Shown here piece by piece: positions 25,132 to 45,179 of a stretch of 48,254 bases of DNA. The notes below the pieces were generated by a model that was not told where the DNA came from, did no database searches, and worked only from the letters and a program-made list of their open reading frames with translations. Position numbers and translations under genes: made by a program. Origin of the DNA: an uncultured Lentisphaerota bacterium (GTDB taxonomy: Bacteria; Verrucomicrobiota; Kiritimatiellia; CAIQIC01; JAGNIJ01); the NCBI GenBank assembly GCA_937870865.1, contig CALMZY010000386.1, positions 1-48,254 of the forward strand, in the 5' to 3' direction. The first letter of the stretch is position 1, and each line of letters begins with the position of its first letter.

Positions 25132-25145
25132 CAGGAGTGGCGCTT

Positions 25146-27599
25146 GTGAAAAACCTTACTGTCCGCATGGTTCTTCCGGTTTTGTTCGCGCTTGCGGCCG
25201 CATTCCTGCCGGGCGGGTGCGCGACGACGGACGAGGCCTACTTTCTGAACACCGAGTCCGAGGCCAACGTGTTCGTCGCGCCGGTGCCGTGCCCGATCTG
25301 GAAAGTGGCGGTCATGCCGTTCAAGGGGCCCACGGACCTGATCGGTTCGTCCGTGTCCGACATGTTCGTCACGGAAATGCTGCGCGCGGGCCGCTATGAA
25401 CTGGTCGAACGCAGCCAGATGTCCAAGGTCCTCAGCGAGTCCGAGCTCTCGCTGGCCGGCCTGTCCCTGTCCAAGGCGACGGAGGTGGGCAGCATGCTCG
25501 GCGCGGACGGCGTGATCATCGGAACGGTGGACGAATACAGCACGGTGGCCTACCGCGGCGCGGCGTTTCCCGTGGTCGGGATCACCGTCCGGCTGATCGA
25601 CTGCAAGAGCGGCAAGGTGATGTGGAGCGTGGACCTCGCCAAGCGGGCGGACAGCAAGAGCGCCACGCTTTCGGAACACGCACGCGATGTCGTTCATGAA
25701 ATGACCGCGGGGCTCTACAAGAAGTGGGGTGTCCAGCGGAAGGTTCCGCGGCCCGTCGAGACGGCCTCGTCGGCCCGCGAGGAATCCCCGGACGCCGTCG
25801 TCGGAATGACCGCGGAACCCGAGCAACCCCCGAAACCGCCGTGCGGCCTGAAACTTTCCGACATGGGCCTGCGCGAAGTCACGATCACGTGGACCGCTCC
25901 GTCCGACAACGCCAGCCAGTTCAAGATCGAGCGAGCGGACAAGGCCGACGGGCCCTTCACGCTTCTGGGCAAGACCTCGGCGGGCCGCGGGGAATACGTG
26001 GACGACGAGGGCCTGGAGGACAGCACCGTCTATTACTACCGCGTGACCGCGGTCTCCGCGAGCGGGCTGCAAAGCGCGCCGTCGGACGTGGTCGAAAGCA
26101 TGACCGCGCCGCCGCCGGAGCCGCCGGCGGACATCCAGGCCGTGCCGGACGGTTCGAGGGCCGTCAAGGTGACGTGGGGCGCGCCGCCGTCGGAAGGCGT
26201 GACCCGGTACATCGTCGAACGCAACGATCCCGACGCGCCGGACCGCTTTATTAAGAGGGGCGAGGTGAAAGGTCTCGTTTTCCGCGAGGGCGGGACGGCG
26301 CAGTCCGATCTGCGGGACGAAACGAAGTACCTCTACCGCGTCACGTCGGTCAACCGCGTCGGGTCCGTCGGCCAGCCGTCGCCGCCGGTCGAGGTCGTCA
26401 CCGAGCCGCCGCCCGCGCCGGTCGCGGACCTGCAGGCCGTCAGCAGCGAGGTGCGATGCGTGCCCCTTTCGTGGAGCCCGAATCCGGAACCGGATATCGT
26501 CCGCTACGACATCTACCGGAAGGACAACGAGGAGACGCCCACCGCCAAAATCGCCTCCGTCAAGGCGCGCGAGACGAAGTACCTCGACGGCGGGCGCGAT
26601 CCGGGCAACCTGGAGGACGATCACACTTACCAGTACGCCATTGTTGCGGTCGACGCCGTGACCGCCGAGAGCAAGAGCTGCTCCCCCGTGTCGGCGACCA
26701 CGCGCAAACCGCCGCCGGTGGTCGAAGGCGTTGCCGCCACGTTCGGGCGGCCGCGGGAGGTGCCCCTGGCGTGGACGGTTTCGCCCGACGAAAAAGTGAC
26801 CGGCTATGACGTCCTTCGCGCCGCGCCCGACGGCGGGGACTTCGCCGTGATTGCGACGGTGAACGGCCGCGAGACCGCCGGATATGTCGACAAGGGCGGC
26901 GCGAAACCGGCGGCCCTTGGCCGGCTTCTCGACGGCACGGAGTACCGGTACCGGCTGGTCGCGTTCAACACCGCGCGCGCCGTGTCCGAGCCCTCCGAAA
27001 TTGTTTCCGCCACGACGAAGTTTGCGCCGGTCGCGCCGATCGAACTGGGCGCGACGACCAACCGGCCCAAGTCGGTGGAGATTTCGTGGAGCCCGAACGC
27101 CGAGATGGACATCAAGGAATACGTGGTCGAATCGGCAGCCGCCGGCACGGCCCGTTTCCGGGAGATCGCGCGCGTGCCTGCGCCGGAAGACGGACAGCCT
27201 TCCGCGACGGAATCGAAACTGCCGGATGGCGCGGGCCGCCTCTACCGCGTCAAGGCGATCGACACGGACACGCTCGAAAGCCCGTGGACGGAGCCGGTTG
27301 AAGGCGCGACCAAGCCTCTTCCTCTCCCGCCGACGGACTTGAAAGCGGAGTTGAACGAGGGCGGCGCCCTGCTGACGTGGACCCCGCCGGATCAGCCGGA
27401 TATCCAGGAGTACAGGATCTGGAAGAAGGGGTTTGTCATGGCCGATCTCTTCACGACGACCGAAGCGTCGGAGTACACATTGTCGTCAGCGGACATTGGA
27501 AAGAAACTGGTGGTCATGGTCAGCGCGGTGGACCAGGACGGCCTGGAAAGCGGGCGCACGGCGCCCGTGGAAATCCGGCCGCCTGCCCCGGAAAAATAA
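25146..27599 (+). CDS. Lipoprotein with an N-terminal CsgG/HfaB/LpoB-like module and six FN3-like repeats (locus gene 2)
   Basis: Lipobox LPGGC. KVAVMPFKGPTDLIGSSVSDMFVTEMLRAGRYELVERSQMSKVLSESELSLAGL...VGSMLGADGVIIGTV fits the CsgG-family signature as I recall it. Six ~95-aa units follow, with W/Y..Y.Y.V.A patterns (e.g. VTITWTAPSDNASQFKIERAD...STVYYYRVTAVSASG). I prefer start GTG 25146, 8 nt after AGGAG; the track uses 25137. Confidence 0.75.
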   Translation: MKNLTVRMVLPVLFALAAAFLPGGCATTDEAYFLNTESEANVFVAPVPCPIWKVAVMPFKGPTDLIGSSVSDMFVTEMLRAGRYELVERSQMSKVLSESELSLAGLSLSKATEVGSMLGADGVIIGTVDEYSTVAYRGAAFPVVGITVRLIDCKSGKVMWSVDLAKRADSKSATLSEHARDVVHEMTAGLYKKWGVQRKVPRPVETASSAREESPDAVVGMTAEPEQPPKPPCGLKLSDMGLREVTITWTAPSDNASQFKIERADKADGPFTLLGKTSAGRGEYVDDEGLEDSTVYYYRVTAVSASGLQSAPSDVVESMTAPPPEPPADIQAVPDGSRAVKVTWGAPPSEGVTRYIVERNDPDAPDRFIKRGEVKGLVFREGGTAQSDLRDETKYLYRVTSVNRVGSVGQPSPPVEVVTEPPPAPVADLQAVSSEVRCVPLSWSPNPEPDIVRYDIYRKDNEETPTAKIASVKARETKYLDGGRDPGNLEDDHTYQYAIVAVDAVTAESKSCSPVSATTRKPPPVVEGVAATFGRPREVPLAWTVSPDEKVTGYDVLRAAPDGGDFAVIATVNGRETAGYVDKGGAKPAALGRLLDGTEYRYRLVAFNTARAVSEPSEIVSATTKFAPVAPIELGATTNRPKSVEISWSPNAEMDIKEYVVESAAAGTARFREIARVPAPEDGQPSATESKLPDGAGRLYRVKAIDTDTLESPWTEPVEGATKPLPLPPTDLKAELNEGGALLTWTPPDQPDIQEYRIWKKGFVMADLFTTTEASEYTLSSADIGKKLVVMVSAVDQDGLESGRTAPVEIRPPAPEK

Positions 27600-27662: not shown

Positions 27663-28235
27663 ATGAAGCTTCTTCGCGGCGTGTTTTGTCTCCTCTGGAT
27701 CCTGTTTCTTCTCCTGAACTCCAGCGCGTTCGGACAGAACCGGAGCCTGGCCGACGCGTTCGTCGGCGGGGCGTCGGCCGGCAAGCCGGCGCCCGCGAGC
27801 ACACCCGCCGGCCATCGCGCGGCGGTCGAACAGCTGTTCGAGCAGATCGACATGCCGGAGACGGTGAACCGCAGCGTCATGCAGATTTCGGCCGCGCTCA
27901 CGGGCGCCGCGGCGGAGGATGGCGCGTACAAGGATGCGGTGGACGCGTACGTGCGCAAGTACGTGAGCTGGGAGGCGCTGAAGGACGAGATCGTCGCGCT
28001 GTACATGAAGAAGTTCACGGAGAAGGAGGTCTTGGACCTCATCGCGTTCTACAACACGGCGACGGGGCGTAAGCTCCTGGCGGAAACGCCGGACATCGGC
28101 GCGACGATCTCCGTCACCGTGCACAATCGACTCGTCGATCACAGTCCCGAGCTCAAGCAGATGATGATGGAAACCGACTTCAAGGCGTTCAAGGATGCGC
28201 TCAGCGACGACACCCCGCCCGAGGATCAACGCTAG
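27663..28235 (+). CDS. Exported DUF2059-like protein (locus gene 3)
   Basis: Signal peptide MKLLRGVFCLLWILFLLLNSSAFG. LYMKKFTEKEVLDLIAFYNTATGRKLL fits the DUF2059 core motif (fT..El..li.FY.sp.GkK) from memory. Confidence 0.65.
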   Translation: MKLLRGVFCLLWILFLLLNSSAFGQNRSLADAFVGGASAGKPAPASTPAGHRAAVEQLFEQIDMPETVNRSVMQISAALTGAAAEDGAYKDAVDAYVRKYVSWEALKDEIVALYMKKFTEKEVLDLIAFYNTATGRKLLAETPDIGATISVTVHNRLVDHSPELKQMMMETDFKAFKDALSDDTPPEDQR

Positions 28236-28244
28236 GATTTCTCC

Positions 28245-31200
28245 ATGAAGCACATTTCTTCAAAGGGAACGGTGTGTTGCCGGGTGGGGTGGGCCGGACT
28301 GCTGATCGTCCTGCTCGGTGTCCTGTCCGCCGCGGGCGAGTGGAGCCAGGCCGTCAAGGACGCCGCCGCGCGGGTGGCCGCCGGGAACGCGTCGCCCGCG
28401 GACCTTCAAACCGTCTTCGAGTACAACCAGTCGATCAATCGAATGGGCGCGCGCGGCACGCAGAACGGCGGCATCAACAACCAGGCGTACCAAGGCAGCC
28501 AGAAAGCATTCACGGCGAAGAATAACTCCATCATCCAGGATTCCGCTACGGAGTGCGGGCTCGACGTGGAGATCAAGGAGCCGAAGAGCGATCCCCTGGC
28601 GGGCACGGACACCGACGTCAACGTGAAGACGAAGGACGGCAAGCCCCTGACTCACGAGCAGTGGAAGAGGCTGAACGACACATACAACCGCAAGGTCAAC
28701 GAGTACCTGAAGAAGCCGCCCGGCAGCAAGGTCAACACGGGCACCGACCTGATGCCCGACCCGAAGACCACGAACCCGCAGGAGTTCCAGAAGATCTGCA
28801 ACGACATCAACAACCAGGGCGGCACGACGTACAAGGATCCCGCCGCCGCGCGGGTCGAGGGGGCGATGGCCAAGGGCGAGCCGATCGTCATCAACGAAGT
28901 CGGCAGCTACGTCAAGGAATTGCAGGGCCAGGCGCAGTCGCATTTCGACGCAGCGGCGAAGACCACCGCCGAGGCGAACAACCTGGCCAAGGTCTACGGC
29001 GAAAACAGCCCGCAGGTGCAGGATTTGCGCGCGAAGGCCCAGATCGAAAATTCGCAGGGCGCGAAGTACATCGAGAAGATCGAGAACGTCGGCGCGAAGA
29101 TTCGCGGCGAGGCGGGCGTGGCGGCCGCGCCGGGAACGGAGTCGCCGTCCGGCAAGCTGACCGAGACGTTGAAGAACAATCGCGGCGCCGACACCATCGC
29201 GCAATCGGAGCAGATCGGCCCGCTGTCCAAGAACGCTCTTAACAACGCCACGCAGAGCACGATTGAGGACCTGGCGAGGGTGGCGAACGCGAACCCCAAG
29301 GCCGCACCGGCCTGCCAGCAGGCCATTGCCGACAGCCTGCGCGACCTGCCGATGAGCCAGAAGGGCCAGGCGATGGAGATGATCAAGACGAAGTACGGCA
29401 ATGATTTCGCGAAAGGCGTGGCGAAGGCCGCGCAGGGCCCAACGGGCGGCGCGACCGTCATGAAGGGATTTGAGAAGGTCATGAAAGTCCTCGGCCCCGG
29501 CCTGATGATTTACGACGGATATCATCGAATCACCGGCGCCTTGAACGCGCCGGACGAGGCGAAGACGTATGTCGCCGGCAAGGCCATCGGCGGTTTCGTC
29601 GGTGGCCTGGGGCTGGGCGCGGCGGTGGGGCTGGGCGTGGCGGGAATTCTGGGCGCGCCCGTGACGGCGGTCGGCGCGGCCGTGGTCATCGGTACAGGGA
29701 TCATCGCCGGCGGCCTCGGCTACGGGGTCGGCGATTACGCCGGCAGTTCGCTTGCCGGCTGGATGCTCGAGGGCGTGCGGCCGCGCGACCAGAGCGAGTA
29801 CGATGCGCTGGCGGCCAAGGGCCTGCTGGACGGCAGCAAGGACATCTACGGCCAACTCATCGCCGCCGGCGTGGATCCGGCCACCGCCGCCGCCGCCGCG
29901 GCCGCGTACAAGAACGGCGACGTGAAGACCTTCCGCGACATCCTCGCGAGCGTCCGCGACAAGCTGGTCAAGGGCGCGAAGAAGATGCCGCCGCGCCGGT
30001 TCAACGAACTGGCGACCAATGAAGTCGAGGTGCTGCTCGACTGTCTGTGCTCGAAGTCGCTGGGCGCCAATCCGTGGGTTGCGCAGGGCTATAACACGGA
30101 GATCCCCAAGGACGCCGATCCGAAGGCCCATTCCTGCGGGAGCCTGGCCAATGGTCCGTGCATGGCGTCGGGCTTCGTCTGCTGGCGCAGTTTCATCAAG
30201 TGGGGGAATCCGGGCATCTCGGATTGCCTCGCGTCGTTCAACCTTCCGACCAACTCCGGCTACGTGCGCGGGGAGATCGATGCGAAGTACCAGAAGCCCT
30301 ACGAGAAGCCCTTCAAGATCAAGGTGATCGCGGACCCGGTCGAGTTTTGCCCGAATGACAAGATCAACGTGAAGATCGTTTGCGAGGGCGGTCGCGGCGA
30401 CTACGAATACCGCTACTACGCCGGCTGGCCCCTGCAGCGTCCCGCGGATGGTCCGAAGGATGCGTGGACGTCCACGCGGTCGTCCAGCATGACGTTCACC
30501 GCGCCGGATCTCAGGCGCGGCTACTTCGACGGACAGTGGGTCTACACGCGGCCGGCCGAATACTATCCGACGTACGTCCAGGTGTGGGCCAGGAGCACCA
30601 CGTTCGATCAGGTCAGCGGCCAGGAGGTGCCGACGGAAATCTGCCAGTCCGTCGGCCTTCGCATGCGTTCGCATGCCGAATGCGAGAAGCTCCATCCGCC
30701 TCCGCCGCCGGAGACCAAGAAGAAGCCGCCGACGAAACCGGTGACCGTTTCGAAACCGACAACGGGGACGAAGACCTCCGCGCCGGAGAGCACGGGAACC
30801 GCTCCGCCGCCGACCACGCCCGGCAAGTATGTTCCTCCGGCGACCACGACACCCGGGGGAAAGAAGACAACTTCCGGCGGAAAGGGCGGACCCGCGAGCG
30901 GTTCAACTCCGCAGCCGCCCCCGGCGCCGCCTTCGCAACCTCCGCCGGCGGGAGGCTCGGGAGCGGGTGGTTCTCAAGGCCCGCAGGAGCCGGGAAGCTC
31001 TCCGAAGCCGCCGTCCTCGGGTGACTCGGATGCCGGCGGGAGCGCCGGAGATTCAACCGTCGACTGTTCCTTCGGCGGCGGTGCGACGGCCATGGACAAT
31101 GGTCCGTTGAATATGTGGGTTGAGGTGCCATCGAACCAGCGCGTGCGGGTGACGATCAAGGGATCGGATGGCTTCTCGCAGACGCTCGAAGGTGTCGGAC

Positions 31201-32309
31201 GGGTGGACATCACGCGTCCGCGTAATCCGAGCGGCACGGACACGATCACGATGGAGAACCTGGACCGGCCGGGCTGCATGGACCAGCAGGTCGCCCAGTA
31301 CGACACAAACGGAATTCCGGGCGGCATGCCGACCTCGGTCAACACGAATGCGCCGGGTTTGGAGGGCAGCGAGGCCGGAATCGGCGCGCTGCCGCCGGAC
31401 GGAACGATCCTTTCGGATCCCGAGGGCGCGCTCGGCGGGTTTATCGGGAACAAGACCGCGAAGGGCGGCGAGAGGACGGACCAGGGATTTGAAACCATCA
31501 AGGTCACCACGGACTCGCAGGCGAAAGAGACCTCCAGCGATCTGGACGTCGCCGCCGCGGGTCATGTGGTGGATGTCGCCGGCGCCGACGCGCAGGACAC
31601 GAAGGATGCGACGGCGAAAGGCACCGCGAAGAGCGATCAGGAAACGAGTTGGGGAAAGACGCTGGGCGATTCCATTCAGAAGGGATTCGAGGATGGAGTG
31701 TCGGCCGCGGCGACGGCGTTCGGTTCGGCCGCGGCGGACAAGGCCGCGGGATCGATTTTCGGCGGAACGAAAGACAAGTCCGATGGAGAAGAGGGGTCGT
31801 CTGCAGGCGAAGGCGAACAGGTCGCCGGCGGTACAACGTCGGCCGGCGGATCATCGTCCGGTGCTGCCGTTGGGGGAAGCAGTGGCGGCGGCGGAGGTGG
31901 CGGGGGGAGCGGCAGTGGCGGCGGCGCGCCTGTGACAACGAGCCTTCCGATTTCTCCCACGAATGTTGTGGGGGGTGGGCAGGGCGGAACGGTGACCTGC
32001 GAATTCTGCGGATACACGACCGTGGTGCCGCCCGGCGGTCAGCCGGCCCCGAATTGCCCGGTTTGCGGTTGCGGCAGAGACAAGGCCCTTGTGACTTGCT
32101 CCGTGTGCGGTTACCGATGGCTGGTGCCTGTGGCGGACGGACCGCCGACGGGCGGATGTCCGAAGTGCGGGAATGGCGGGCCGGTGACGCCGGACGAAAC
32201 GGGCGGCGCGGGCGCGATCGCTCCGCCGGCTGTCGGAGTGGGTACACCGGCAACGGGTGTGCCGATGACTCCCGTGACGCCCGGCGCGGGAGTGACACCC
32301 ATCCGGTAG
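28245..32309 (+). CDS. Giant exported low-complexity protein 1 (1354 aa; locus gene 4)
   Basis: ATG lies 9 nt after the previous stop. In order: an N-terminal hydrophobic signal or anchor; a charged A/K/E/Q-rich region; a glycine-zipper hydrophobic block (nt 29575-29760); a Cys-rich globular region (nt 30031-30695); a Pro/Thr/Gly linker; the conserved DSWG-type module (31647-31766); a Gly/Ser run; and two CxxC...CxxC motifs (31995-32175). Confidence 0.8.
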   Translation: MKHISSKGTVCCRVGWAGLLIVLLGVLSAAGEWSQAVKDAAARVAAGNASPADLQTVFEYNQSINRMGARGTQNGGINNQAYQGSQKAFTAKNNSIIQDSATECGLDVEIKEPKSDPLAGTDTDVNVKTKDGKPLTHEQWKRLNDTYNRKVNEYLKKPPGSKVNTGTDLMPDPKTTNPQEFQKICNDINNQGGTTYKDPAAARVEGAMAKGEPIVINEVGSYVKELQGQAQSHFDAAAKTTAEANNLAKVYGENSPQVQDLRAKAQIENSQGAKYIEKIENVGAKIRGEAGVAAAPGTESPSGKLTETLKNNRGADTIAQSEQIGPLSKNALNNATQSTIEDLARVANANPKAAPACQQAIADSLRDLPMSQKGQAMEMIKTKYGNDFAKGVAKAAQGPTGGATVMKGFEKVMKVLGPGLMIYDGYHRITGALNAPDEAKTYVAGKAIGGFVGGLGLGAAVGLGVAGILGAPVTAVGAAVVIGTGIIAGGLGYGVGDYAGSSLAGWMLEGVRPRDQSEYDALAAKGLLDGSKDIYGQLIAAGVDPATAAAAAAAYKNGDVKTFRDILASVRDKLVKGAKKMPPRRFNELATNEVEVLLDCLCSKSLGANPWVAQGYNTEIPKDADPKAHSCGSLANGPCMASGFVCWRSFIKWGNPGISDCLASFNLPTNSGYVRGEIDAKYQKPYEKPFKIKVIADPVEFCPNDKINVKIVCEGGRGDYEYRYYAGWPLQRPADGPKDAWTSTRSSSMTFTAPDLRRGYFDGQWVYTRPAEYYPTYVQVWARSTTFDQVSGQEVPTEICQSVGLRMRSHAECEKLHPPPPPETKKKPPTKPVTVSKPTTGTKTSAPESTGTAPPPTTPGKYVPPATTTPGGKKTTSGGKGGPASGSTPQPPPAPPSQPPPAGGSGAGGSQGPQEPGSSPKPPSSGDSDAGGSAGDSTVDCSFGGGATAMDNGPLNMWVEVPSNQRVRVTIKGSDGFSQTLEGVGRVDITRPRNPSGTDTITMENLDRPGCMDQQVAQYDTNGIPGGMPTSVNTNAPGLEGSEAGIGALPPDGTILSDPEGALGGFIGNKTAKGGERTDQGFETIKVTTDSQAKETSSDLDVAAAGHVVDVAGADAQDTKDATAKGTAKSDQETSWGKTLGDSIQKGFEDGVSAAATAFGSAAADKAAGSIFGGTKDKSDGEEGSSAGEGEQVAGGTTSAGGSSSGAAVGGSSGGGGGGGGSGSGGGAPVTTSLPISPTNVVGGGQGGTVTCEFCGYTTVVPPGGQPAPNCPVCGCGRDKALVTCSVCGYRWLVPVADGPPTGGCPKCGNGGPVTPDETGGAGAIAPPAVGVGTPATGVPMTPVTPGAGVTPIR

Positions 32310-32333: not shown

Positions 32334-35300
32334 GTGAAGAGACTTCTTGTGTCTGTGTCTTTCGCGTTGTTCGTTTCTTCGGGTGCGTTCGCGCAGGGCA
32401 ACTTCGGCGACACTCGCATCCCGGAAGACCTTCCTCTCGAGGACTACGGCAAATACTGGGACCAGTACAACCAGGAGATCTCCAAGGCGCAGGCGGAGTA
32501 CAACAAGAGCGTCCAGGACATCAAGAACAGCACGAAGTCGGGCCCCGAACAGCAGGCCAAACTTCAGGAGGCCCAGGGCAAGTACCGCGCGCAGAGCCAG
32601 AAGCTCGCGCGCAACGTCCGTGACCCGATCCATCGCCGCCTGATCCAGGAGGTCAACACGGGCGCGACCGAGGGGGCTGGCGCGGCCAACTCGCAGGTGC
32701 GCCAGACCAGCGGGACCGACGTGAACAGCGACGGCTTTCGCGGGCACGAGGGCGACCTGGACGGCGGCGGCGGAGCCCGGACGGCCGACAAGGTGACGCA
32801 AACCCTCAAGAAGATGAAGATCAACGTGCCCGTGGAGACCTACGGCGGCACGATGGAAGTCAAGGGCGGGATGAACCTGACGATCAACAAGGAGGGCCCG
32901 CTCGGCAAGGTCGGGTCGGCGGCGCACCAGGCGCAGGTCGGCGTCGACGCCCGCAATCCCGAAACCTACGTGTCCGAATCCATGCAGAAGGGCCAGCCCG
33001 GCCGCGATGCGGTTCGCGTGCAGGATCACATCAAGAAGGGGCTGGACGGCAGTCCGGCGAAGGGCGCGCACAAGTGCGTGGCCGAGGGCTACGTCTCGGA
33101 CGCCCAGCTCCAGGAAATCATGAACAGGAACGGGATCACCGGCAAGACTCCGGACCAGTTCCGCGAGCAGCTTCAGAGTGCAAAGGAGGGCAGAGCGGGG
33201 GTATCCGATGCCGAGGCGGGCAAGTTCAACAAGGCCTGCGACGACATTATGAACACCGCCGAGGCCAACACGACCGCCAAGGCGAATGCGGAAATGGCCG
33301 GTGCGCAGAGGGAGCTGGACGGCTTGAAGGGGAAGACCGATCCGGCGTCCAAGGCCCGCGCGCAGGATCTTCGTAACCAGCTCGCCGATTCGCGCGCGAA
33401 GCTGGGCGAGACGAAGGCCGCCAACACCGAAGTGCGATCCGGACAAAGTTCGTACCACGAGAAGATCGGCAGTCGAACTGAAATGAGCGGCGAGCCGCGC
33501 GTGGCGGAGTCCGGCGGGCCTAAAGCGGCTGAAACGGCCGGTCCGAAGACAGCGGAAGCCGGCGGGCCGAAGATGGGCGAGTCCGGCAGTCCCCGCGTGA
33601 CGGAGTCCGGCGGACCCAAAGCGGTTGAGACAGCCGGCCCGAAGACCGTGGAGTCCGGCGGGCCGAAAGTCGGCGAGGCGGGCACCCCGAAAGCGGGCGG
33701 AACGGCTGCGCCGGAGGCTCCGGGACTGGGCGGCAAGGCGCTCAAGGCGGCCGGCGACGGCATGGAAGTCATTGCGGTGATCAACCAGGCCGGAAAGGTT
33801 CACGAGGGAATCAAGGAAGGCGACATCAACAAGGTGGCGGCGGGGATTGCCGGCGAGGATGCCGCGAAAACCGCGCAGGTGCAGGGCGGCAAGGATTACG
33901 CCGATGCCATGGGCCAGCTTCTCGATGCGAAGACTGCCGAGGCGCAGTCGGCCGCCGAGGGCAAGCTGAAGCGCATGGGCGCGACGCCGGACGAAATCCA
34001 GACGTATCACGACAACTATGACAAGGACCCGGCGGCGGCGCGCGCGGTCGTGCAGGCCGTGAAGGATCGCGGCGGAGTCGACACGAAGCCCCAGCAGGGG
34101 TTGGAAGGTGCCGGGCCGGAGGAGAGCAGTTGGAACGCGAAGGATCAGCTCGTGGACGGCGCAAAGCAGGCCGGCAGTTACGCTCACGCCGCCGGCGACA
34201 TGGTCTCGATGGGCGGGCTGAGCCACGTCGAGAATGCCGTGTCCGATGTTTACGACATTACCAAGAACGCCGATGCGGTGGACGATTCGACCAAGGCGGA
34301 ACAGCTCAGCAAGTTGTACACGGACCTGCGCATGCGCGGCGCCACTCCGGACGAGGCCAATCAGGCGCTTCAGGATTACTACAAAAATCCGAAACCGTTC
34401 CGCGATCTGGTCCAGGATCTGCGCGAGCGCGATCCGACCCAGTTCGACGAAGCGATCGGCCGGCACGCGAAGAATCTCGGGAATCGGGACAACGTCGATA
34501 TAAATCCCGACGACACCGCCGCCGACCGCGCGGCGGCATTGGGCAAACACCTGAAGCAGGGGCTGGTCGACGATCCGTCGAAAGCGGTGGGAGGCATCAT
34601 CGGCGACATCACGGGCGATAACCAGGAAACGCAGGGCATCCTCGATGCCGCGGGGAAACGCGACAAGGAAGGCGCCGCGATACGCGGCGGCATCTACAAG
34701 GATCTGATCGACCGGGGCGTCCCCGAATCGGAGGCCCGCGCGGCGGTCAACGACCTCGCTCGCGGCAATCCCGGCACCCTGCGCGGCGTGGTCAAGGACC
34801 TGCAGGCCAAGGACGCGCCCGCCAAAGACAAGCCGGAACCTGAAGCGGAAACGGCGGAGGCGAAGCCGGATGCCGAACCCGCCGCGGCGAAACCGGATAC
34901 GGAGGCCGTGACGGACACGGGCGAGCCGGCTCCGTGGGGCGCGCGCAACGACGACGGTGAGGCGGTCGATGCCGGGGCGTATGAGAACGGGGACCGGATC
35001 ATCAACAAGGACGGCGTCGAGTTTGTGAACCAGGATGGCCAGTGGGTCGAGACCGGCGACAACCGCGGCGCGTATGACGCCGACTCTGACAAGGGCGGTA
35101 TCGAGGCGGTTCCGACGCCTTCGATTCCCGACCTGGGCCTGGACGAGAACGGCAACGCGGCGGATCAGCAGACGGCCGGTGACGAGTCGGTGGCGGACGA
35201 CGAGGCCGGCGATGACGAAACGGCCGAAGAGGACGTGGCTGATGCGGACGAAGACTCCGGCGACGACGAGGCGGAAGACGGGGAGGTCTCGGACGCGGAT

Positions 35301-36367
35301 GGCGACGGCGAGGATGATTCCGAGTCGGATGATCTGGCCGAGGGCGAAGCGGATATGCCGGACATGGAAGAGGACGAAGAAGGGTCCGACGATGAGGGCG
35401 GTGTTCTCGACGGATACGCCGGTGATCGCGAGGAGGATGCGGGCCATCGCGGGAAGACCGGCTTAAACACGATGGGCAAGGTCATGCAGATCGCGAGAGC
35501 CTCCACGGCAGGAGATCAGGAGGTGGCTAACGCCAACCGGACCATCAGTAATGCGGGTGAAGATTTCAACACGACCCGGAATCAAGCTGCGTCCGATGCG
35601 GCCGCCGGCGATCGCGCGGACAGTTGGGGCACGAAAATGGGCGATTCCATTCAGCAGGGCTTGGAACAGGGTCTCGGGCAGGCCGCTACGGCGGTCGGCT
35701 CCGCCGCGGCCGACCAGGTGACCGGGCAGGTTTTCGACGGCGGAAAGAAGGATGAGCCGGAGAGCGGCGGATCGAGCGAGGGCAGTGGCGAGGGAGAAAG
35801 CGGCGGATCCACATCGGGCGCCACTATTTCCGGCGGGGGCGGTTCCGGGGGTGGAGGTGGATCGGGGGGGGGGGGGGGGGGGTGGGGGTGGGGGGGGGGG
35901 GGGGGGGGGGGGCGGTTCCGACGTCTATGCCGCCTCCGTCCGGTGGGGCTGGTGGAATTGGCGTAAGTGGAGAGAGTGGTGGCGGTCTCCCTGAAAGCGG
36001 CGGCGTTGGATCTTCGCCGCTTCCTTCGCCGACGTCCTCGCCGTCGGGTGGAAATGTCAAGCTGGTGTGTATGAAGTGCTCCTACGAGTTCATGCCGCCG
36101 GCCGATGGTTCAACAACGTGCCCGCAGTGCGGCGGCGCCACGATACCGCAGACGATCTGGGATCCGTCGCAGGCGCCCGGTGCCACAGCGACAACAACGC
36201 CGACTCCCGCGCCAACCCCTGCGCCGGCTCCGGCACCCGAGCCTCCGAAAGGCTGGAAATGCCCCGTGTGCGGGAGTTATGACACCGTCTTTTCCAACAC
36301 GCATCCCCTGTATGGAGATGTGTATCACTGCAACGGGTGCGGCGGCGCCGTGCATAATGTCTATTAA
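32334..36367 (+). CDS. Giant exported low-complexity protein 2 (locus gene 5), with the reading frame broken inside the poly-G tract (track ORFs 32334-35966 and 35882-36367)
   Basis: GTG start lies 6 nt after GAGG. Signal peptide MKRLLVSVSFALFVSSGAFA. It has the same C-terminal architecture as protein 1, but only if one G is added to (or two removed from) the tract at 35864-35912. That change would give about 1344 aa. Confidence 0.7.
33490..33700 (+). repeat. In-frame tandem repeat in giant gene 2 (two 32-aa units built from GGPK/AGPK 8-mers)
   Basis: PRVAESGGPKAAETAGPKTAEAGGPKMGESGS is followed by PRVTESGGPKAVETAGPKTVESGGPKVGEAGT. Confidence 0.8.
35864..35912 (+). repeat. Near-homopolymeric G tract (G19-T-G5-T-G23) inside giant gene 2
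   Basis: Counted directly: 35864-35882 are G, 35883 is T, 35884-35888 are G, 35889 is T, 35890-35912 are G. Confidence 0.95.
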
Positions 36368-36511
36368 GCACGGCTAAATCGTAGCCCATTCATTTATAAT
36401 GATTTATGAAGTGAACGCGAGTCCGGGCTCGGGCCGTTGTTATTGGCTGGACAGTTCAGCTTTTCGGAGTAGGAAGGGGTTTGGGGCGTGGCGGTAGCGG
36501 AGGGTTCAGCC

Positions 36512-39500
36512 ATGAAATTTCGGAATCCATTCTATTCGGTCCAAGCGCGGATGATGCTTCTTCTCGTCGCGCTTGCGTGGCCGGGCAACCAGGTTTTTTC
36601 TGCGGAAGAAGAATCCGCGAGATCGGTTGCCGAGTCGCGTGCGGCGCAGGCGCAGGAGCTGAGCAACCTTCGCGAGGAATACGCCGCAAAAGCCCGCCAG
36701 CCGGGCGCCGACCAGGCGAAGCTGTTGTCCGAGTACAAGGCCCGGTACGAAGCCATCCGGCAGAAGTTTCTCGCCGCGGATACGCGCGCGGCTGAAATCC
36801 AGGACATCAAGGATCGTTTCCGGGGCGAGATCGAGAATACCGGAAGCAATCCGAAGGACGTGCGGGCGGACGTTGATCTGGCGGCAAGGAATGAGCAAGC
36901 CGCGAGGACTTTGGCGGAAGAATGGCGCGCGAAGGGCGACGTTGTCGTGGAGACCCCCACGAAGTATGTGAACCAGACGCGCGATGCCACGCTCTGGCGG
37001 CCCGAAACGCCTGAAATCAAGCAGGCCAAGGTGGAGGACCTCGATGCTTTTTCCACCGAAGGGGGACAGGAGGGTACGGGCAACAAGTCCGCCGTTCGCG
37101 ACGAACTCGGCTGGCAGATCGACAACGAAAAGAAGCTCCTGCACGCCCAGAACGACGGCGATCTCAAGACGGGCGCCAAGAGCGTGGACAAAGCCGCCGA
37201 GGCCGCCGGCCGGAAGGCGCAGAATCCCGAATTCTACAGGAAGGCCGAAGTCCTGCGCCAGTACGGCGATGACGTCCAGGCCGGCATCACCGACCTCGCC
37301 GACACTCCCGAAGTCCGCAAGCAGAAGCTCGATGCCTGGAGGGAAGAAGCGCGCATTGAGATGGATAAGTCCCGCGCCGTGGCCGAACGCCGCAGCGCCC
37401 TGCGCGACGATGTCCGGGCGGATTTCCAGAGAGCGCTCGAGAATGCGACGCCCGCCGATCCCGCCAACCGTGACGCCAACTTCCGCGACAGCGCCGCCAT
37501 CGGCGACGAGCGCGTCCGCGTGCGCGAGTCGAATCTCGCCGCCGAACGCATGAACGAGACGCTGCGCGCGGAGAGCGGCGGAAAAACGACGATTGAGGCG
37601 GGCGGCAGAGGTTCGACGGTTCGCGAAGGAACGACGACGCGCATCGGAGAGCCAGCGCCAGATGTGGTCACCACCATCAAGCCGGGGGAGGCAGGTCCGA
37701 TCGCGCGCAACACGACGATCGGCCAGCCGTCGCCGCAGGCGGCGGAAAGCGTGGCGGGGTCCGTTCCGGATTCGTCCGGCGTCGGCGACGTGGTGCCCGT
37801 AGAACCGCCGGGCTCTCTTTCCTCTTCGGCCGGCTCATCCGGCGGACGGCCCAGCCTCGATCAGTTCACGCCGAAGATCGATCCGTCGCAGGTGCAGATG
37901 CCTGGGCGGATCGAGCGAACAACCCGTTACGTTTCGGGCGATCCTGCCTTGGCCGATCTCGCCGAGCCCGGCGTCAAGCACGTGCAGGCCCCTCCGCCGA
38001 ATCCGGAACTGGCGGAGCTTGTCCGGAACATTCCATCACAGCCCTCGAAGCCGGCGGCTCCCGTGGATGTTCAAATGCCGGGTCCCGTTGAGCGGCCGAC
38101 GCGCTACGTCTCGGGCGATCCGGCGCTGGCCGATCTCGCCGAGCCCGGCGTCAAGCACGTGCAGGCCCCTCCGCCGGACGCGGACCTCGCAGCGCTCGCG
38201 CGGGGCGACTACAAGCCGCCTGCCCGGTCAGGAGGCGCGAACGCGGGCGAGCAGACGGTTCTGAGTTCGGGAAGCCAGGGCCCCAATCTTGGCGAAGGCA
38301 CGCCGACCACGGTGAAGGGAACGGAAACGAGGCTCAGTTCCGGCAGCACGGGTCCGAACATGGGCGAAGGTACGCCGACGAAACTTCAGCCTGCTGACAC
38401 GAGACTCAGTGCGGGAAGCAGCGGTGCCAACCTGGGAGAGGGAAGTCAGACCCGGCTCAGCGGTGTGCAGCCGGAAGCGACTACGGCCATCGAGCCCGGC
38501 GGTTCGGGGCCGAGGGTGGCTGAAGGATTAACGACGCGCGCCGGAGGGCCAGCCGCCAACACCGCGATCGAACCGGGCGGCTCAGGCCCGCAAGTGCGTT
38601 CGGGCACGAAGACGGCTCTGGGCGAAGCGTCCGTTTCTTCCGCCGGCGGAGTCAACCGGCCCAGCCTTCAGGATTTCGCGCCGCAGATCGATCCCTCGCA
38701 GGTGCAGATGCCGGGGCGCGCGGAGCCGACAGTGAAATACGTGAAGGGGGATCCCGTTCTCGCGGATTTGGCCGAGCCGGGAGTGAGGCACTTGCAGGGC
38801 GGGCCGGCTCCGGGCGATCCGACACTGGCGGACCTGCTCAAGGGAGGCAGCAAGCCTCGCGGCGGTGGGGCGGGCGCTGCGGCAGACACGGTGATCGGCG
38901 GAGAAGGGTCCGGCGGCGCGCGTGCGGGCGAGGGAACCCCGACGAAAGTCGGGCAGGCGCAGACGACGATCAACCCTGAAGGTCCGGGCGGGCCGAACAG
39001 GGGCGAGGGGAGCACCACCAAGGTTCGCGAAGGCGCCGGGTCGACGGAAGCAGCCGGCCCCAAGGCGGAAGGTCCCAGGATTCGCAAGATTCTAAACGTG
39101 GCGAACGAAGTAGTCGGCGGCATGGCCGTCGCCGGCCAGCTTGGCGAAGCCGGCACGAAACAGGCCGGCGATGTAATTGACGAGAACAGGGATTTCACGG
39201 TGGGCGATGCGGGCGAGGCCCTGGTGGAAGGCGCCGGCATTCCGAGCATGTACCAGATGGGCCGCGACATCTCGGCCGAAGAGCAGATCCGGGTGCAGCA
39301 GGGGCAGCAGGGGCAAGCCGCCGCGCTGGGCCGCACGTACGTGCGGATGGCTGACAAAATGGCCCATGAAATGATCAACGATCCGGTTGACCGTGCCATC
39401 GCCGAGGAGGAAGCGCGCGCGGCGGCGGCCGGCGAGGAGCCCGACTACACGCGCAGCACATACAATGCCGCAACGGACGTCGGCGGCAAGTTCACGGGGC

Positions 39501-42500
39501 TTGGAGCGCTCGCGAACGCGGTCGAGGAAACGACGACGTGGGACGAGCGCGCCGACTACGCGGCCCAGCGCGGCGCGATGGACCAGTTTGTGGACGAGAA
39601 CGTGGGCCGCAGTTCCACCCGCATCCGCAACCTGCAGGGCGAGATCGAACAGCTGAGCCTCACCGGCGACATGAACGATCCCGACACTGCCGCGCAGATC
39701 GAGCAGCGCATCGCGCAGATGGACGCCGAGTACGACAAGCTGAACCGCGTCTCGGGCATGGCCCAGCGCACGCTCGGGCAGGAGTCGGCCCAATCCGTCG
39801 ACCAGCAGATCGCCAGCCTGCCGCGCCGGGATGATTTTACGGGTTACATCGACGAGAACGTCACTGCGCGGGGCGGGAAGATCGATTCGACCCGGCCCGC
39901 GGGCACGGAGCGCGCCACGGCGCCGGGTTCGGACACCGGAGCGCAGGCGGACCTCGATATCGCGCCCGCGGATGAGCAGAGACTGGTGAACTCGACAGCC
40001 TCCGCCGGGCTGACGACGGTCGGATCGCCGCAGCAGGCCGGCGCGCCTTCGCTGACGGACGCGCTTCGCGGCATCGGCGACCGGATCAAGAACGAGGCGG
40101 AGAACCAGGTCATCAAGGAGGTCACGAGCAATCCTCAGCCGTACGTGCGCGGCGCCCTGCAGGGGCTTAACGCGGAGAGCGACGACTCGCGGCGCATCCG
40201 GCAGATGTACAATTCCGCGCCCGAGGGCAGCGACGACCGCAGGCAGTTGAACGGACTCTTCGAACAGCTTCGTGACGCGCGGACACCGGAGCAGCGCGCC
40301 GCGGCCCAGGCGGAAATCGAACGCTGGTCCGACAAGTACCCGCCCCCGGCGACAGCGCCGGCGACGGTGCCCGTCCTGCCGACCAAGGACGATCTCCTGA
40401 CCGATCGCAACCAGAGCGCCGACAGGGTCCGGCAGCACAACGAATATATCAACCAGCTCCAGCAGAACGGCGGCAGCAAAGAGGATATTGAGTCGGCTCA
40501 GTGGATCCGCGACCAGGAGCAGCAGCGTCTGGAGGGGTATGACCGGAGCTTGAGCAGCGGCGAATTCCAGCAACCTGCCGCGCCCGCGGAATCGTCCGCG
40601 CCGCCTTCGCCCGCGACGACTGCGTCCACACTCGCGCCGGCCGGCGCGGCGCCCGAAGAGGTGCCGGCCGAACCGGAGGAGCCGAGGTCGGCGAGCGGCT
40701 ACACCGCGGGCCAGCTGCAGAACGACAACTACAACATGCAGAACCTCGCGGACGATGCGCAGAACCGGATCAACAACCTGCAGCAACAAATGGCCGACAG
40801 CCACAACAGCACTGAACGGCGCGATCTCCAGGAACAGATCGACAAGGAGCGCGCGGAGCTGAACAGCCTCCAGGAGCGCATTGACGGGAACAATGCCGAG
40901 CTGACGGAGATGGGCGCCGAAACGGGAGACGGCGTCAAGCCGCCGCCGTCGCCGTGGACCGAGGAGCAGTTGCAGAACGACAACTGGAATATGCAGAACC
41001 TGGCCGAGGGCACCCAGAACCGGATCGACAACCTCGAGCAGCAACTTGCGGCGAGCCGTGACGGCTCCGAGCGCAGGGATCTTCAGGAGCAGATCGACAA
41101 GGAGCGCGCGGAACTGAACAACCTCCAGGAGCGCATGGATGGGAACGACGCCGCCCTGACCGCGATGGGCGCGGAGCCGGGCACCGGCGAGCAGGTCGAG
41201 ATCGGGCCATGGTCGCAGGAGCAATTGGAGAACGACAACTGGAACATGCAGAACCTTGCGGAGCGCACGCAAGGACGGATCGACGATCTTGAGCAGAGGA
41301 TCAGGGACAGCCGCGACGGTTCCGAGCGCCGGGATCTTCAGGAACAGCTGGATCGAGAGCGGGCAGAACTGGGCGGGCTTCAAGAGAGAATCGACGGGAA
41401 CAACGAGCAGTTGGGCGCGATGGCGGCCGCCGGCGGTGCCGGAGAGGAAGAGCAGGGGGACACCGAGGGGCAGGACGACAGCTCCGAGTCCGCCGCCGAA
41501 TCGGCCGGTTCGTCCGTGTTCGACGGCGCCGGCGCCGACTCTGCCGATGCCACAGATGAAATGTGGACAGAGGACGAGCCTGCCGGCGACGAAGAATCGG
41601 ATGTTGATGACGAGCCGGACGCCGATGGTGAGCAACTGGCCTCCGATGAACCCGAGTACGGCGAGGGCGACGACGGGTACGATTCCGGGGATGTGGATCC
41701 AAACACCGAAGGGGGCATCCAGCAATTTGCCGAAGCCACGGAGAGCCGTCTGGGCGCGGACGGGAGCGCCGAGATGAATATCATCAGGGTATCGTCGGAC
41801 GGGCGCATTGCCGAGACTCGCAGCGATGCCGAGGCAAACAACGCGGACAACATCCGGGATCAGGGCGGCGCGGAAGCCCAGCAGACCGTCAACGAAGCCG
41901 CGACGGAAGTCGCCGCCGGCGATCGCCAGGACAGTTGGGGCAATGTGATTGGGAATTCCGCGCAGACGGGCTTTGAACAAGGCGGCCAGGCGCTCGGTAC
42001 TGCGCTGGGAGGGTCCGGCGCGGATCATGTATCGGGCCAGGCCTTCGGGTCGAAACCGTCTTCCGGTTCGGATTCCGGCAGTGGTGAAGGCAATGAAAAC
42101 GGCGACGACGCGGGCCAGGGCGATGCCGTCGCAACGGGTTCGTCTCCCGCCGTCCCGCCGCCCGCGCCCCCTCCGGTCAGCATGCCCCCGCCGTCTTCTC
42201 CTTCGCCGGCGCCGGCCGCGCCTTCGACGCCTTCGTCCGGCTACGGTAATTGTCCCAGATGCAATATTCCTTTTATCCAGTGTTCGGATGGCGCCTGGCG
42301 ATGTCCGAATTCGGCATGGGTGAGGCAGAATCCCGGCGGGGCACGGCCACCCGCAGCGCCCGCTCCCGCTCCGACGCCGGTGGTGGTGCCGAGTCCGACC
42401 TATGGGCCGCTGTTGCAGCAGACGCAACCGAACCTGACGCCTGTCCAACTGAACGCGGCTGGCGAGCCGATGTTCGCGCCGGGGCAGAATTTCGGGAACA

Positions 42501-42535
42501 CGTACCCGGTTCCCTACGGAGGTCCCACCCGGTAA
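36512..42535 (+). CDS. Giant exported low-complexity protein 3 (2007 aa from ATG 36512; locus gene 6)
   Basis: GGAGGG RBS. Signal peptide MKFRNPFYSVQARMMLLLVALAWPGNQVFSA. Several internal repeat families and an acidic tract precede the conserved DSWG-type module (41930-42050), a Pro-rich linker and a CxxC...C...C motif (42247-42310). Confidence 0.8.
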   Translation: MKFRNPFYSVQARMMLLLVALAWPGNQVFSAEEESARSVAESRAAQAQELSNLREEYAAKARQPGADQAKLLSEYKARYEAIRQKFLAADTRAAEIQDIKDRFRGEIENTGSNPKDVRADVDLAARNEQAARTLAEEWRAKGDVVVETPTKYVNQTRDATLWRPETPEIKQAKVEDLDAFSTEGGQEGTGNKSAVRDELGWQIDNEKKLLHAQNDGDLKTGAKSVDKAAEAAGRKAQNPEFYRKAEVLRQYGDDVQAGITDLADTPEVRKQKLDAWREEARIEMDKSRAVAERRSALRDDVRADFQRALENATPADPANRDANFRDSAAIGDERVRVRESNLAAERMNETLRAESGGKTTIEAGGRGSTVREGTTTRIGEPAPDVVTTIKPGEAGPIARNTTIGQPSPQAAESVAGSVPDSSGVGDVVPVEPPGSLSSSAGSSGGRPSLDQFTPKIDPSQVQMPGRIERTTRYVSGDPALADLAEPGVKHVQAPPPNPELAELVRNIPSQPSKPAAPVDVQMPGPVERPTRYVSGDPALADLAEPGVKHVQAPPPDADLAALARGDYKPPARSGGANAGEQTVLSSGSQGPNLGEGTPTTVKGTETRLSSGSTGPNMGEGTPTKLQPADTRLSAGSSGANLGEGSQTRLSGVQPEATTAIEPGGSGPRVAEGLTTRAGGPAANTAIEPGGSGPQVRSGTKTALGEASVSSAGGVNRPSLQDFAPQIDPSQVQMPGRAEPTVKYVKGDPVLADLAEPGVRHLQGGPAPGDPTLADLLKGGSKPRGGGAGAAADTVIGGEGSGGARAGEGTPTKVGQAQTTINPEGPGGPNRGEGSTTKVREGAGSTEAAGPKAEGPRIRKILNVANEVVGGMAVAGQLGEAGTKQAGDVIDENRDFTVGDAGEALVEGAGIPSMYQMGRDISAEEQIRVQQGQQGQAAALGRTYVRMADKMAHEMINDPVDRAIAEEEARAAAAGEEPDYTRSTYNAATDVGGKFTGLGALANAVEETTTWDERADYAAQRGAMDQFVDENVGRSSTRIRNLQGEIEQLSLTGDMNDPDTAAQIEQRIAQMDAEYDKLNRVSGMAQRTLGQESAQSVDQQIASLPRRDDFTGYIDENVTARGGKIDSTRPAGTERATAPGSDTGAQADLDIAPADEQRLVNSTASAGLTTVGSPQQAGAPSLTDALRGIGDRIKNEAENQVIKEVTSNPQPYVRGALQGLNAESDDSRRIRQMYNSAPEGSDDRRQLNGLFEQLRDARTPEQRAAAQAEIERWSDKYPPPATAPATVPVLPTKDDLLTDRNQSADRVRQHNEYINQLQQNGGSKEDIESAQWIRDQEQQRLEGYDRSLSSGEFQQPAAPAESSAPPSPATTASTLAPAGAAPEEVPAEPEEPRSASGYTAGQLQNDNYNMQNLADDAQNRINNLQQQMADSHNSTERRDLQEQIDKERAELNSLQERIDGNNAELTEMGAETGDGVKPPPSPWTEEQLQNDNWNMQNLAEGTQNRIDNLEQQLAASRDGSERRDLQEQIDKERAELNNLQERMDGNDAALTAMGAEPGTGEQVEIGPWSQEQLENDNWNMQNLAERTQGRIDDLEQRIRDSRDGSERRDLQEQLDRERAELGGLQERIDGNNEQLGAMAAAGGAGEEEQGDTEGQDDSSESAAESAGSSVFDGAGADSADATDEMWTEDEPAGDEESDVDDEPDADGEQLASDEPEYGEGDDGYDSGDVDPNTEGGIQQFAEATESRLGADGSAEMNIIRVSSDGRIAETRSDAEANNADNIRDQGGAEAQQTVNEAATEVAAGDRQDSWGNVIGNSAQTGFEQGGQALGTALGGSGADHVSGQAFGSKPSSGSDSGSGEGNENGDDAGQGDAVATGSSPAVPPPAPPPVSMPPPSSPSPAPAAPSTPSSGYGNCPRCNIPFIQCSDGAWRCPNSAWVRQNPGGARPPAAPAPAPTPVVVPSPTYGPLLQQTQPNLTPVQLNAAGEPMFAPGQNFGNTYPVPYGGPTR
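37895..38176 (+). repeat. 177-nt-period direct repeat in giant gene 3, including a 49-nt perfect copy
   Basis: ggccgatctcgccgagcccggcgtcaagcacgtgcaggcccctccgccg occurs at 37951-37999 and again at 38128-38176. The units encode QMPG..ER.TRYVSGDPALADLAEPGVKHVQAPPP. A diverged third unit lies near 38690-38800. Confidence 0.9.
40712..41440 (+). repeat. About 2.9 tandem copies of a 255-nt (85-aa) unit in giant gene 3
   Basis: Unit starts are at 40712, 40967 and 41222. Consensus: QLQNDNWNMQNLA..TQNRIDNLEQQ...SRDGSERRDLQEQIDKERAELN.LQERIDGN...L..MGAE. Confidence 0.9.
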
Positions 42536-45060: not shown

Positions 45061-45179
45061 GAGCCGGTTCGCAATCCCATGGAGGCCATGACGCGAGTTG
45101 TTGTGCGGAAGCAAGGAAGGACCTCTGCGGGCCTTTTCATTGTACAGCCGCCTTGTCCGGCGCACATCGATCAGCCATC

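Follow-up and report, generated by a model that had tools for sequence, protein, structure and literature searches.

Here, we describe a conserved protein domain that is encoded four times in a contig of 48,254 nucleotides from an uncultured Lentisphaerota bacterium (CALMZY010000386.1, read on its forward strand; this whole stretch is called the window below). Three copies lie in the C-terminal part of large proteins, P1 to P3, and the fourth at the end of a smaller protein, P4. An earlier note, made from the sequence alone, had described a motif of about 40 aa common to these four proteins. Translation of the window verified that all four motif peptides are encoded, each on the + strand (P1 31641-31766, P2 35616-35741, P3 41927-42052, P4 44929-45054), although the strings quoted at the time begin 3-6 nt upstream of the starts given for them. 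The proteins and their copies of the domain, which we call the module, are the following:

28245-32309, + strand: P1, 1354 aa; an N-terminal hydrophobic, signal-like segment precedes a P1-type N-terminal domain, a Gly-rich hydrophobic stretch and Pro/Thr linkers, and the module is followed by a Gly-rich run and two CxxC..CxxC units
31425-31778, + strand: module of P1, aa 1061-1178 (hmmsearch with the hidden Markov model (HMM) A2, i-Evalue 2.7e-50, profile 1-118)
32334-36367, + strand: P2, split by a frameshift into a body at 32334-35966 (1210 aa as read) and a Cys4 tail at 35882-36367 in the next frame
35400-35750, + strand: module of P2, aa 1023-1139 (A2 HMM, i-Evalue 7e-53)
36488-42535, + strand: P3, 2015 aa; a P3-type N-terminal domain, internal repeats and an acidic run precede the module, which is followed by a Pro-rich linker and one Cys motif
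41711-42061, + strand: module of P3, aa 1742-1858 (A2 HMM, i-Evalue 5.6e-49)
44053-45060, + strand: P4, 335 aa, a conserved subunit of the gene cluster (AlphaFold2 (AF2) model with a predicted local distance difference test score (pLDDT) of 87.2 and a predicted template modelling score (pTM) of 0.71; at least 165 homologous clusters at E<=1e-3)
44716-45057, + strand: divergent module of P4 at its extreme C-terminus, aa 222-335 (hhalign, shuffle control and a match of the A3 HMM)

Pairwise BLASTP comparison of P1 to P3 yields a single significant segment per pair, which spans the motif over 150-190 aa (E-values 2e-14 for P1/P3, 1.5e-15 for P2/P3 and 3e-6 for P1/P2). The island of conservation claimed earlier is therefore real and centred on the motif, but it measures about 115 aa rather than 40. 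The motif itself is specific and conserved; it represents the last third, i.e., the C-terminal helix, of a helical domain of about 115 aa. A six-frame HMM scan shows that the window holds exactly four copies of this domain.

A four-sequence profile, run exhaustively with HMMER against 1.84 billion proteins (cluster representatives), retrieved 162 representatives at E<=1e-3, of which 103 reach E<=1e-10 and 4 reach E<=1e-30; the E-values go down to 1e-45, and the mutual identity between the 162 clusters is below 50%. Among the matches listed, nearly every one is a single stretch that mostly covers profile positions of about 1-117, some beginning at column 10-50; protein lengths mostly fall between 600 and 2800 aa, and signal-peptide-like N-termini predominate. 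Two repetitive multi-stretch matches (P0010 and P0142) were left out, and six further matches show two stretches. In the large proteins, a tail of 92-294 aa follows the module (median 189, n = 131 members); the usual distance to the C-terminus is 120-260 aa. The family emerged only in the exhaustive search: a word-indexed search with three copies found one protein (P0001), and the same kind of search with a 46-sequence alignment returned no proteins.

In Pfam (Pfam-A 2025), no match was found over the module in P1-P3, in ten other members or, at E<=1, in 46 isolated domains; NCBIfam 20.0 gave no match over the module, and no PDB sequence searched with the module profile fell below E 0.1. The module is thus a previously undescribed domain family, absent from Pfam, NCBIfam and PDB. 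The profile search suggested in the earlier note retrieves a real family and neither compositional noise nor a domain described in these collections. The domain is C-proximal in proteins whose N-termini are mostly signal-peptide-like, and the large members whose context was fetched are encoded beside genes of CsgG-like lipoproteins. A genome scan located the module in a metagenome-assembled genome (MAG) labelled 'Verrucomicrobiota' (88% identical to P1) and in a Victivallales MAG.

The 111 full-length copies have near-invariant positions, with Gly91 and Gly100 in 110 copies each, Phe112 in 102, Ala45 in 100, Gly53 in 98, Gly87 in 94, Ser75 in 93 and Trp76 in 84. The pattern starts with L-D-x-F, continues with a conserved Met25 and, along the first helix, retains A34, G38, D39, A45, A52-G53, D55-A56 and A68. 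The sequence D-R-x-N-S-W-G, with the N-S-W-G kink, occupies columns 71-77, and the last helix reads [LIM]80-G81-D82-A83-[VLI]84, G87-[VIL]88, G91 and [FA]95-G96, ending with [FL]99-G100, A102-A104 and [IV]111-F112. Between orthologues, the module is 83-86% identical, compared to 55-71% across the whole protein. Copies of the same locus resemble each other more closely (mean identity 0.50) than copies of different loci (0.28 +/- 0.05, maximum 0.40). Such likeness would follow from a partner common to co-resident copies, and equally from recent duplication or gene conversion.

The structure prediction proposed earlier for the module alone was carried out with AF2 from the 46-sequence alignment and gives two helices, at 2-73 and 76-112, with a two-residue break at S75-W76 (mean pLDDT 71.7). 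A Foldseek search of this model against PDB found no match. In the last helix, hydrophobicity repeats with a period of 3.9-4.0 in the large-protein copies and of 3.9 in P4, and conservation with periods of 4.0 and 4.6, respectively. Glycine and other small residues prevail at columns 77, 81, 83, 87, 91, 96, 100 and 104, beside hydrophobic residues, which places the helix in the glycine-zipper motif class with its small-xxx-small pattern along one face. The small-xxx-small spacing pointed out earlier is thus recovered; a period near 4 points to this spacing and not to the 3.5 of a left-handed coiled coil.

The large-protein and P4 versions of this helix differ in their hydropathy. In the large proteins it is amphipathic: the best 19-residue window has a hydropathy of 0.41, and 13% of its positions are charged, including a conserved Asp (column 82) and Asp/Lys (columns 105-106). 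In P4, 19 residues in a row are uncharged in the last helix; their mean Kyte-Doolittle hydropathy of 1.22 lies under the cut-off of 1.6 used here for a membrane span. As the helix of the large proteins carries conserved Asp, Glu and Lys, an inner-membrane stop-transfer anchor, which would leave the Cys4 tail in the cytoplasm, is unlikely there; for P4, such an anchor is still conceivable.

P4 combines an N-terminal hydrophobic (signal-like) segment, a helical bundle, a disordered linker, a long helix and the module end. AF2 places the bundle at 26-178, the linker at 180-223 and the long helix at 224-310, followed by a short final helix. Its relationship to the other copies is remote: BLAST gives no significant match of P4 with P1-P3, and the four-sequence HMM misses P4 even at E<=10. 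The claim of a fourth copy nevertheless stands. In hhalign, the P4-type profile aligns with the module profile at a probability of 96% (E 4e-9, 110 of 119 columns), and of 97.6% (E 4.1e-12) with profiles of 111 and 56 sequences. The real alignment scores 52.2, whereas the scores of 100 full column shuffles and 100 within-helix shuffles lie at 10.5-10.9 +/- 2.3 and never exceed 22.9. Moreover, the 46-sequence HMM matches the P4-type protein in the window and in the six other loci that include that gene; in the window it matches P1-P3 and P4 only. The C-terminal 114 aa of the P4-type proteins align end to end with the module profile, and the anchor residues L-D-x-F, Met, Q-R-x-N-S-W, the Gly at column 100 and the final I-F are in register. 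Taken together, the hhalign scores, the shuffles and the register of the anchors identify the P4 copy as a genuine divergent member, which, unlike that of the large proteins, is located at the very end of its protein. Orthologues of P4 are well conserved in every fetched locus, and the few named clusters of the P4 family are assigned to 'Kiritimatiellae bacterium' and, in one case, to 'Opitutae bacterium'.

The combination of the S-W-G turn with helices prompted a comparison with the WXG100 family. Membership was rejected: none of the 46 members matches the Pfam WXG100 model at E<=1, and the motif spacing is wrong, as the module turn reads S-W-G-x-x-[LIM]-G with Gly directly after Trp instead of W-x-G. 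WXG100/ESX proteins, flagellar axial proteins and SNARE/syntaxin proteins remain useful as an analogy only, in that several proteins of one system share a helical element. Likewise by analogy, the layout of P4 (helical bundle, linker, long helix, hydrophobic end) is reminiscent of syntaxins. In Foldseek searches of the P4 model against PDB, only insignificant helical-bundle matches occur (E>=2.5), and the match with syntaxins is among the insignificant ones (E about 2.5, probability 0.09).

The genes for P1 to P4 belong to a cluster that further comprises:

25137-27599, + strand: FN3 lipoprotein, first gene of the cluster, with an N-terminal domain of the CsgG/PelC/LpoB superfamily and five FN3 repeats (Pfam CsgG 2e-13, fn3 2.6e-38)
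27663-28235, + strand: exported DUF2059 protein of 190 aa (Pfam DUF2059, 8.5e-13)
42619-43203, + strand: small lipoprotein of 194 aa, GNA1162/PelC-sized (Pfam, BLASTP and PDB comparison)
43210-44040, + strand: exported protein of 276 aa and of no known family (no Pfam, NCBIfam or PDB match), highly conserved across loci

The same gene order surrounds all seven large members from other sources that were looked up (six fetched contexts plus the L003/L004 orthologues). It consists of a CsgG-like lipoprotein with FN3 repeats (720-1420 aa), a variable slot of about 200 aa, one to four module proteins, a small CsgG-like lipoprotein of about 190 aa, a conserved protein of 280-318 aa and a P4-type protein of 324-351 aa. 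The FN3 lipoprotein is syntenic in L003, L006, L007, L008, L011 and L012, and the slot taken by the DUF2059 protein in the window contains an unrelated lipoprotein of about 200 aa or nothing in other loci. In every locus scanned, all proteins encoded between the two lipoprotein genes carry the module; their number is three in the window, two in L007, two in L011 and four in L012. The linkage to genes of CsgG-like lipoproteins, which the earlier note had proposed to check, thus holds for every large member with a fetched context. In the window, the cluster is flanked by housekeeping genes, namely those of MgsA, RNase Y, YmdB, an HtrA-like protease, NAD kinase and a member of the aspartate/ornithine carbamoyltransferase family. 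Our literature search on CsgG-like, PelC, GNA1162 or LpoB proteins in Verrucomicrobia or Kiritimatiellota found no paper on this cluster.

The two lipoproteins are related to each other, as the small one aligns over about 189 aa with the N-terminal domain of the larger at 67% identity, and both have a lipobox cysteine (...LPGGC-ATTDE in the FN3 lipoprotein, ...ILAGC-ASTDE in the small one). Their earlier label as 'CsgG-like' agrees with the Pfam CsgG match, which in both covers profile positions 35-159 of 210 only, but the closest solved structures are GNA1162 and PelC and not CsgG. In the PDB comparison, the small lipoprotein matches GNA1162 (4hrv, 167 aa) at 1.2e-3, PelC (160-172 aa) at 0.034 (5t10/5t11) and 0.15 (9h80), while CsgG chains (262-285 aa) are reached at E 0.8-1 over 42 residues. 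Full-length CsgG with its transmembrane-barrel segments was not recognised in either lipoprotein. Given a mature length of about 170 aa and best matches to GNA1162 and PelC, a CsgG-type secretion pore is not established. No cluster protein has a Pfam or NCBIfam match to CsgE, CsgF or CsgA/B, and no gene for an outer-membrane barrel was seen in the cluster. Comparison of seven loci shows the 276-aa protein to be a lipoprotein in four of them; one block shared across loci is VAKPSARRIAESNLRTYQAVVTLRA, and by eye, the first half of the protein resembles an alpha/beta domain of the CsgG/LpoB type. The lipoprotein superfamily (CsgG/PelC/GNA1162/LpoB) is already known, and the cluster recalls systems that connect polymorphic proteins to dedicated machinery through a common tag; for the module, P4 and the 276-aa protein, no relatives have been described.

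Compared to known systems, the cluster is similar to curli (type VIII secretion) in that its lipoproteins match Pfam CsgG and the adjoining exported proteins share a recognition-like element. It differs in the size of the lipoproteins, which falls well short of the 262 aa of CsgG, and in the element: here it is a C-proximal helical domain, whereas in curli it is a targeting peptide at the N-terminus of an amyloid repeat protein. In size and sequence, the small lipoprotein is closer to PelC, GNA1162 and LpoB. PelC forms a ring of 12 subunits under the outer membrane. The cluster lacks a PelB-like barrel and genes for polysaccharide synthesis, however; one of its paralogues carries the five FN3 repeats, and the partners are giant proteins instead of a polysaccharide.

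Around the module, the sequence of P1, P2 and P3 is of low complexity and repetitive, yet these proteins have conserved N-terminal regions that belong to three different families (11, about 9 and 14 of 150 representatives, respectively, in iterative searches). The weak N-terminal likeness between P2 and P3 that had tentatively been proposed is not supported: BLAST gives E 3.4-5.5, and the iterative searches lead to different families. In two members (P0030, encoded at L008 2387-8311, and P0053) of the ten others scanned with Pfam, the module is preceded by RHS repeats and a teneurin-type YD shell, and module and tail occupy the usual toxin position. P1-P3 show no RHS matches in Pfam and are no members of the RHS/YD polymorphic toxins. 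In this family of exported proteins from Kiritimatiellae, bacteria of the Planctomycetes-Verrucomicrobia-Chlamydiae (PVC) group, the N-terminal parts are unrelated, and only the module is constant.

Downstream of the module, the order of a Gly/Ser/acidic run, a Pro-rich linker and Cys4 motifs was confirmed for P1 and P3, and for P2 once its frameshift is bridged. The CxxC..CxxC units are located at 31998-32066 and 32097-32168 in P1 and, after the frameshift, at 36068-36130 and 36260-36340 in P2; each unit pairs two CxxC knuckles within the spacing of 4-30 residues that marks the zinc-ribbon pattern, and P3 has the variant CxxC-x7-C-x6-C at 42251-42304. Altogether, 87 of 131 complete tails of module proteins contain one to four CxxC..CxxC units, and all Pfam zinc-ribbon matches in the tails are below the family cut-offs. 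These predicted CPxCG-type units are located C-terminally in signal-peptide proteins that mostly have no internal membrane segment; zinc ribbons outside the cytoplasm would be unusual.

How may these observations be brought together? We favour, with a probability of roughly 45%, the reading that the module is a glycine-zipper domain for assembly or docking, by which giant proteins of variable type are attached to a conserved complex of the envelope. From its L-D-x-F start, the module runs through a long helix with regularly spaced Ala/Gly and the N-S-W-G kink into a helix of 37 residues ending with I-F. The stripe of Gly and small residues with period 4, alongside hydrophobic residues, would allow this last helix to pack with like helices, so that the modules of one to four variable proteins and of P4 could bundle together. 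In this way, the variable proteins would be tethered to an envelope complex made up of the two lipoproteins of the PelC/GNA1162/CsgG superfamily and the protein of about 280 aa. Glycine-zipper spacing drives helix oligomerisation (Kim et al. 2005, as cited in PMC5380434). The mutual binding of module copies, as well as the site and the role of the complex, is what we infer from the constant C-proximal position, the varying partners, the strict synteny, the P4 copy and the zipper period. Of the functions considered in the earlier note, anchoring or oligomerisation fits a module common to unrelated N-terminal families and the conserved P4; a terminal sorting domain fits less well, given the tail that follows the module in the large proteins.

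Several observations weigh against a docking domain of this kind. A few small proteins with a partial module are located outside any such cluster, and the tail behind the module is long and often bears Cys4 units. The pTM of the AF2 module model is 0.32, which leaves the mutual arrangement of its two helices undefined, and the P4 model breaks at GGIG and not at S-W. Mean-field direct coupling analysis of 141 sequences (Meff 133) yields scattered top pairs and no anti-diagonal hairpin signal. Finally, the identity between large-protein and P4 modules is 0.20 both within and between loci.

The linkage to CsgG-family lipoprotein genes and the placement near the C-terminus of unrelated 'cargo' N-termini, RHS shells included, would also suit an export or sorting signal that is read by the lipoprotein machinery and passes the giant proteins across the outer membrane, in the manner of the C-terminal domains (CTDs) of type IX substrates or of the targeting segment of curli subunits. 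Like type IX CTDs, PEP-CTERM and LPXTG signals, the module is a constant C-proximal element on unrelated exported proteins and is linked to dedicated machinery. Those signals, however, reside at the extreme C-terminus and are removed, and the type IX CTD is a beta-sandwich. In contrast, the module is helical (two helices in AF2, no Pfam match at E<=1), is non-terminal in the 131 large members and is also part of P4, a conserved component that looks like machinery rather than cargo and has the only terminal copy. In addition, the lipoproteins are small and closest to GNA1162/PelC, with no pore-forming part evident, and the cluster shows no barrel gene. We therefore regard an export signal as rather unlikely. 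Unlikely, too, is a membrane-inserting glycine-zipper element, be it an anchor or a pore-forming, toxic unit. Such a role is suggested by the uncharged last helix of P4, the period-4 glycine pattern, the toxin position of the module in the two RHS members and the precedent of cell-surface glycine-zipper toxins such as Cdz of Caulobacter (PMC5380434). With these proteins the module has in common the repeated small-xxx-small spacing of a helix, a motif that drives oligomerisation and cell-surface association (PMC5380434). But CdzC and CdzD are type I-secreted proteins of 84-86 aa that are almost wholly hydrophobic (PMC5380434), whereas the zipper helix of the large proteins is amphipathic, with the charged positions given above, and belongs to a larger helical domain of polar character; a sequence relationship between Cdz and the module was not detected. 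Furthermore, most module proteins are devoid of a strongly hydrophobic internal segment, no immunity-like gene is evident, and both the housekeeping surroundings and the class-wide conservation are unlike those of toxin islands.

That the resemblance merely reflects Ala/Gly-rich low complexity or a recent local duplication and has no function of its own is highly improbable. The repetitive neighbouring sequence and the tandem arrangement of the genes for P1-P3 might point in this direction. They do not account for full-length matches in 162 divergent clusters, for near-invariant positions, for a P4 alignment score that column shuffles do not reach, for the presence of the module on unrelated N-terminal families, or for orthologues in which it is better conserved than the protein as a whole.

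Going one step further than the docking domain, we tentatively consider, as a possibility more doubtful than docking itself, that the cluster encodes an undescribed envelope apparatus of the Kiritimatiellae, which displays or exports polymorphic giant proteins, RHS-shell proteins among them, recruited via the shared zipper domain as a docking tag. Its conserved parts would be the two PelC/CsgG-superfamily lipoproteins, one with an FN3 stalk, the partner of about 280 aa and P4. The Kiritimatiellae, which are abundant and degrade sulfated polysaccharides anaerobically, have a cell envelope that is, to our knowledge, almost unstudied. From this point of view, the analysis provides a new domain family, a conserved gene cluster of six parts and the rule that genes between the two lipoprotein genes encode the module. 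One tag, one conserved partner (P4) and lipoproteins of a ring-forming type offer a handle on how PVC bacteria mount giant, fast-evolving proteins, including those of the RHS type, on or beyond the envelope. If the module serves for docking, the cargo of the system could be predicted from it in any genome; if the cluster is a display or export apparatus, it would represent a new kind of system for protein display or secretion that has a cargo tag of its own.

Some further observations concern the occurrence of the module and the surroundings of the cluster. Small proteins of 144-151 aa, encoded at L013 5727-6182 and L014 5897-6352 (P0135; also P0134), consist of a signal peptide and a partial module that covers profile positions 2-104 and lacks the final I-F. 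P0135 adjoins a gene of the Asn/Asp-tRNA synthetase type and has no CsgG-like genes nearby; the domain therefore also occurs outside the cluster. In the Victivallales MAG CAYRKB01, the cluster survives as a decayed remnant that is spread over three reading frames (L005 550-1284; also L001 and L002). It comprises a lipoprotein signal with the first 40 or so residues of a CsgG-like protein, a complete module of the large-protein type (P0001) and, from a P4-type module, the last helix, with no other cluster genes nearby. Downstream of P4 in the window, 45153-46091 encodes a protein of 312 aa with weak HExxH/peptidase-MA-like matches (Pfam E 2e-3; NCBIfam flagellinolysin E 8e-3). Other loci do not keep it at this position, and two of them have an open reading frame of 70 aa and a glycerate kinase gene instead.

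Within the large proteins, P1 has a hydrophobic, Gly-rich stretch at aa 447-496 (29583-29732) with a mean hydropathy of up to 2.05, which looks like one or two glycine-zipper membrane helices. P2 and P3 do not have it, but the P1-type proteins flagged by the hydropathy scan (P0004, P0121, P0137 and P0139) carry the same stretch at the same position. In P3, for which the ATG at 36512 is a likely alternative start, a 255-bp repeat is present in 2.5 copies at 40712-41347 and encodes helical repeats of about 85 aa (...QLQNDNWNMQNLAE...RRDLQEQIDKERAEL...). The frameshift of P2 lies inside a poly-G tract (G19-T-G5-T-G23, 35864-35912), beyond which the next frame encodes the Pro-rich linker and the two Cys4 units. 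The orthologue in a related MAG (L004) is intact, with 1387 aa, the same tail and a Gly/Ser run of mixed GGN codons; the tract in the window is either an assembly error or a slipped-strand, i.e., phase-variable, site. Repeats of 48/96 bp at 33498-33691 of P2 encode GGPKxxEx octapeptides, and the L004 orthologue contains about 18 perfect copies of GGPKVTET, so that the repeat number differs between close relatives. The first 360 or so aa of P2 (32334-33410) are 15-30% identical to the corresponding part of that orthologue (L004 357-1500), compared to 55-92% in the remainder, which suggests that the N-terminal part of P2 is hypervariable or has been exchanged.

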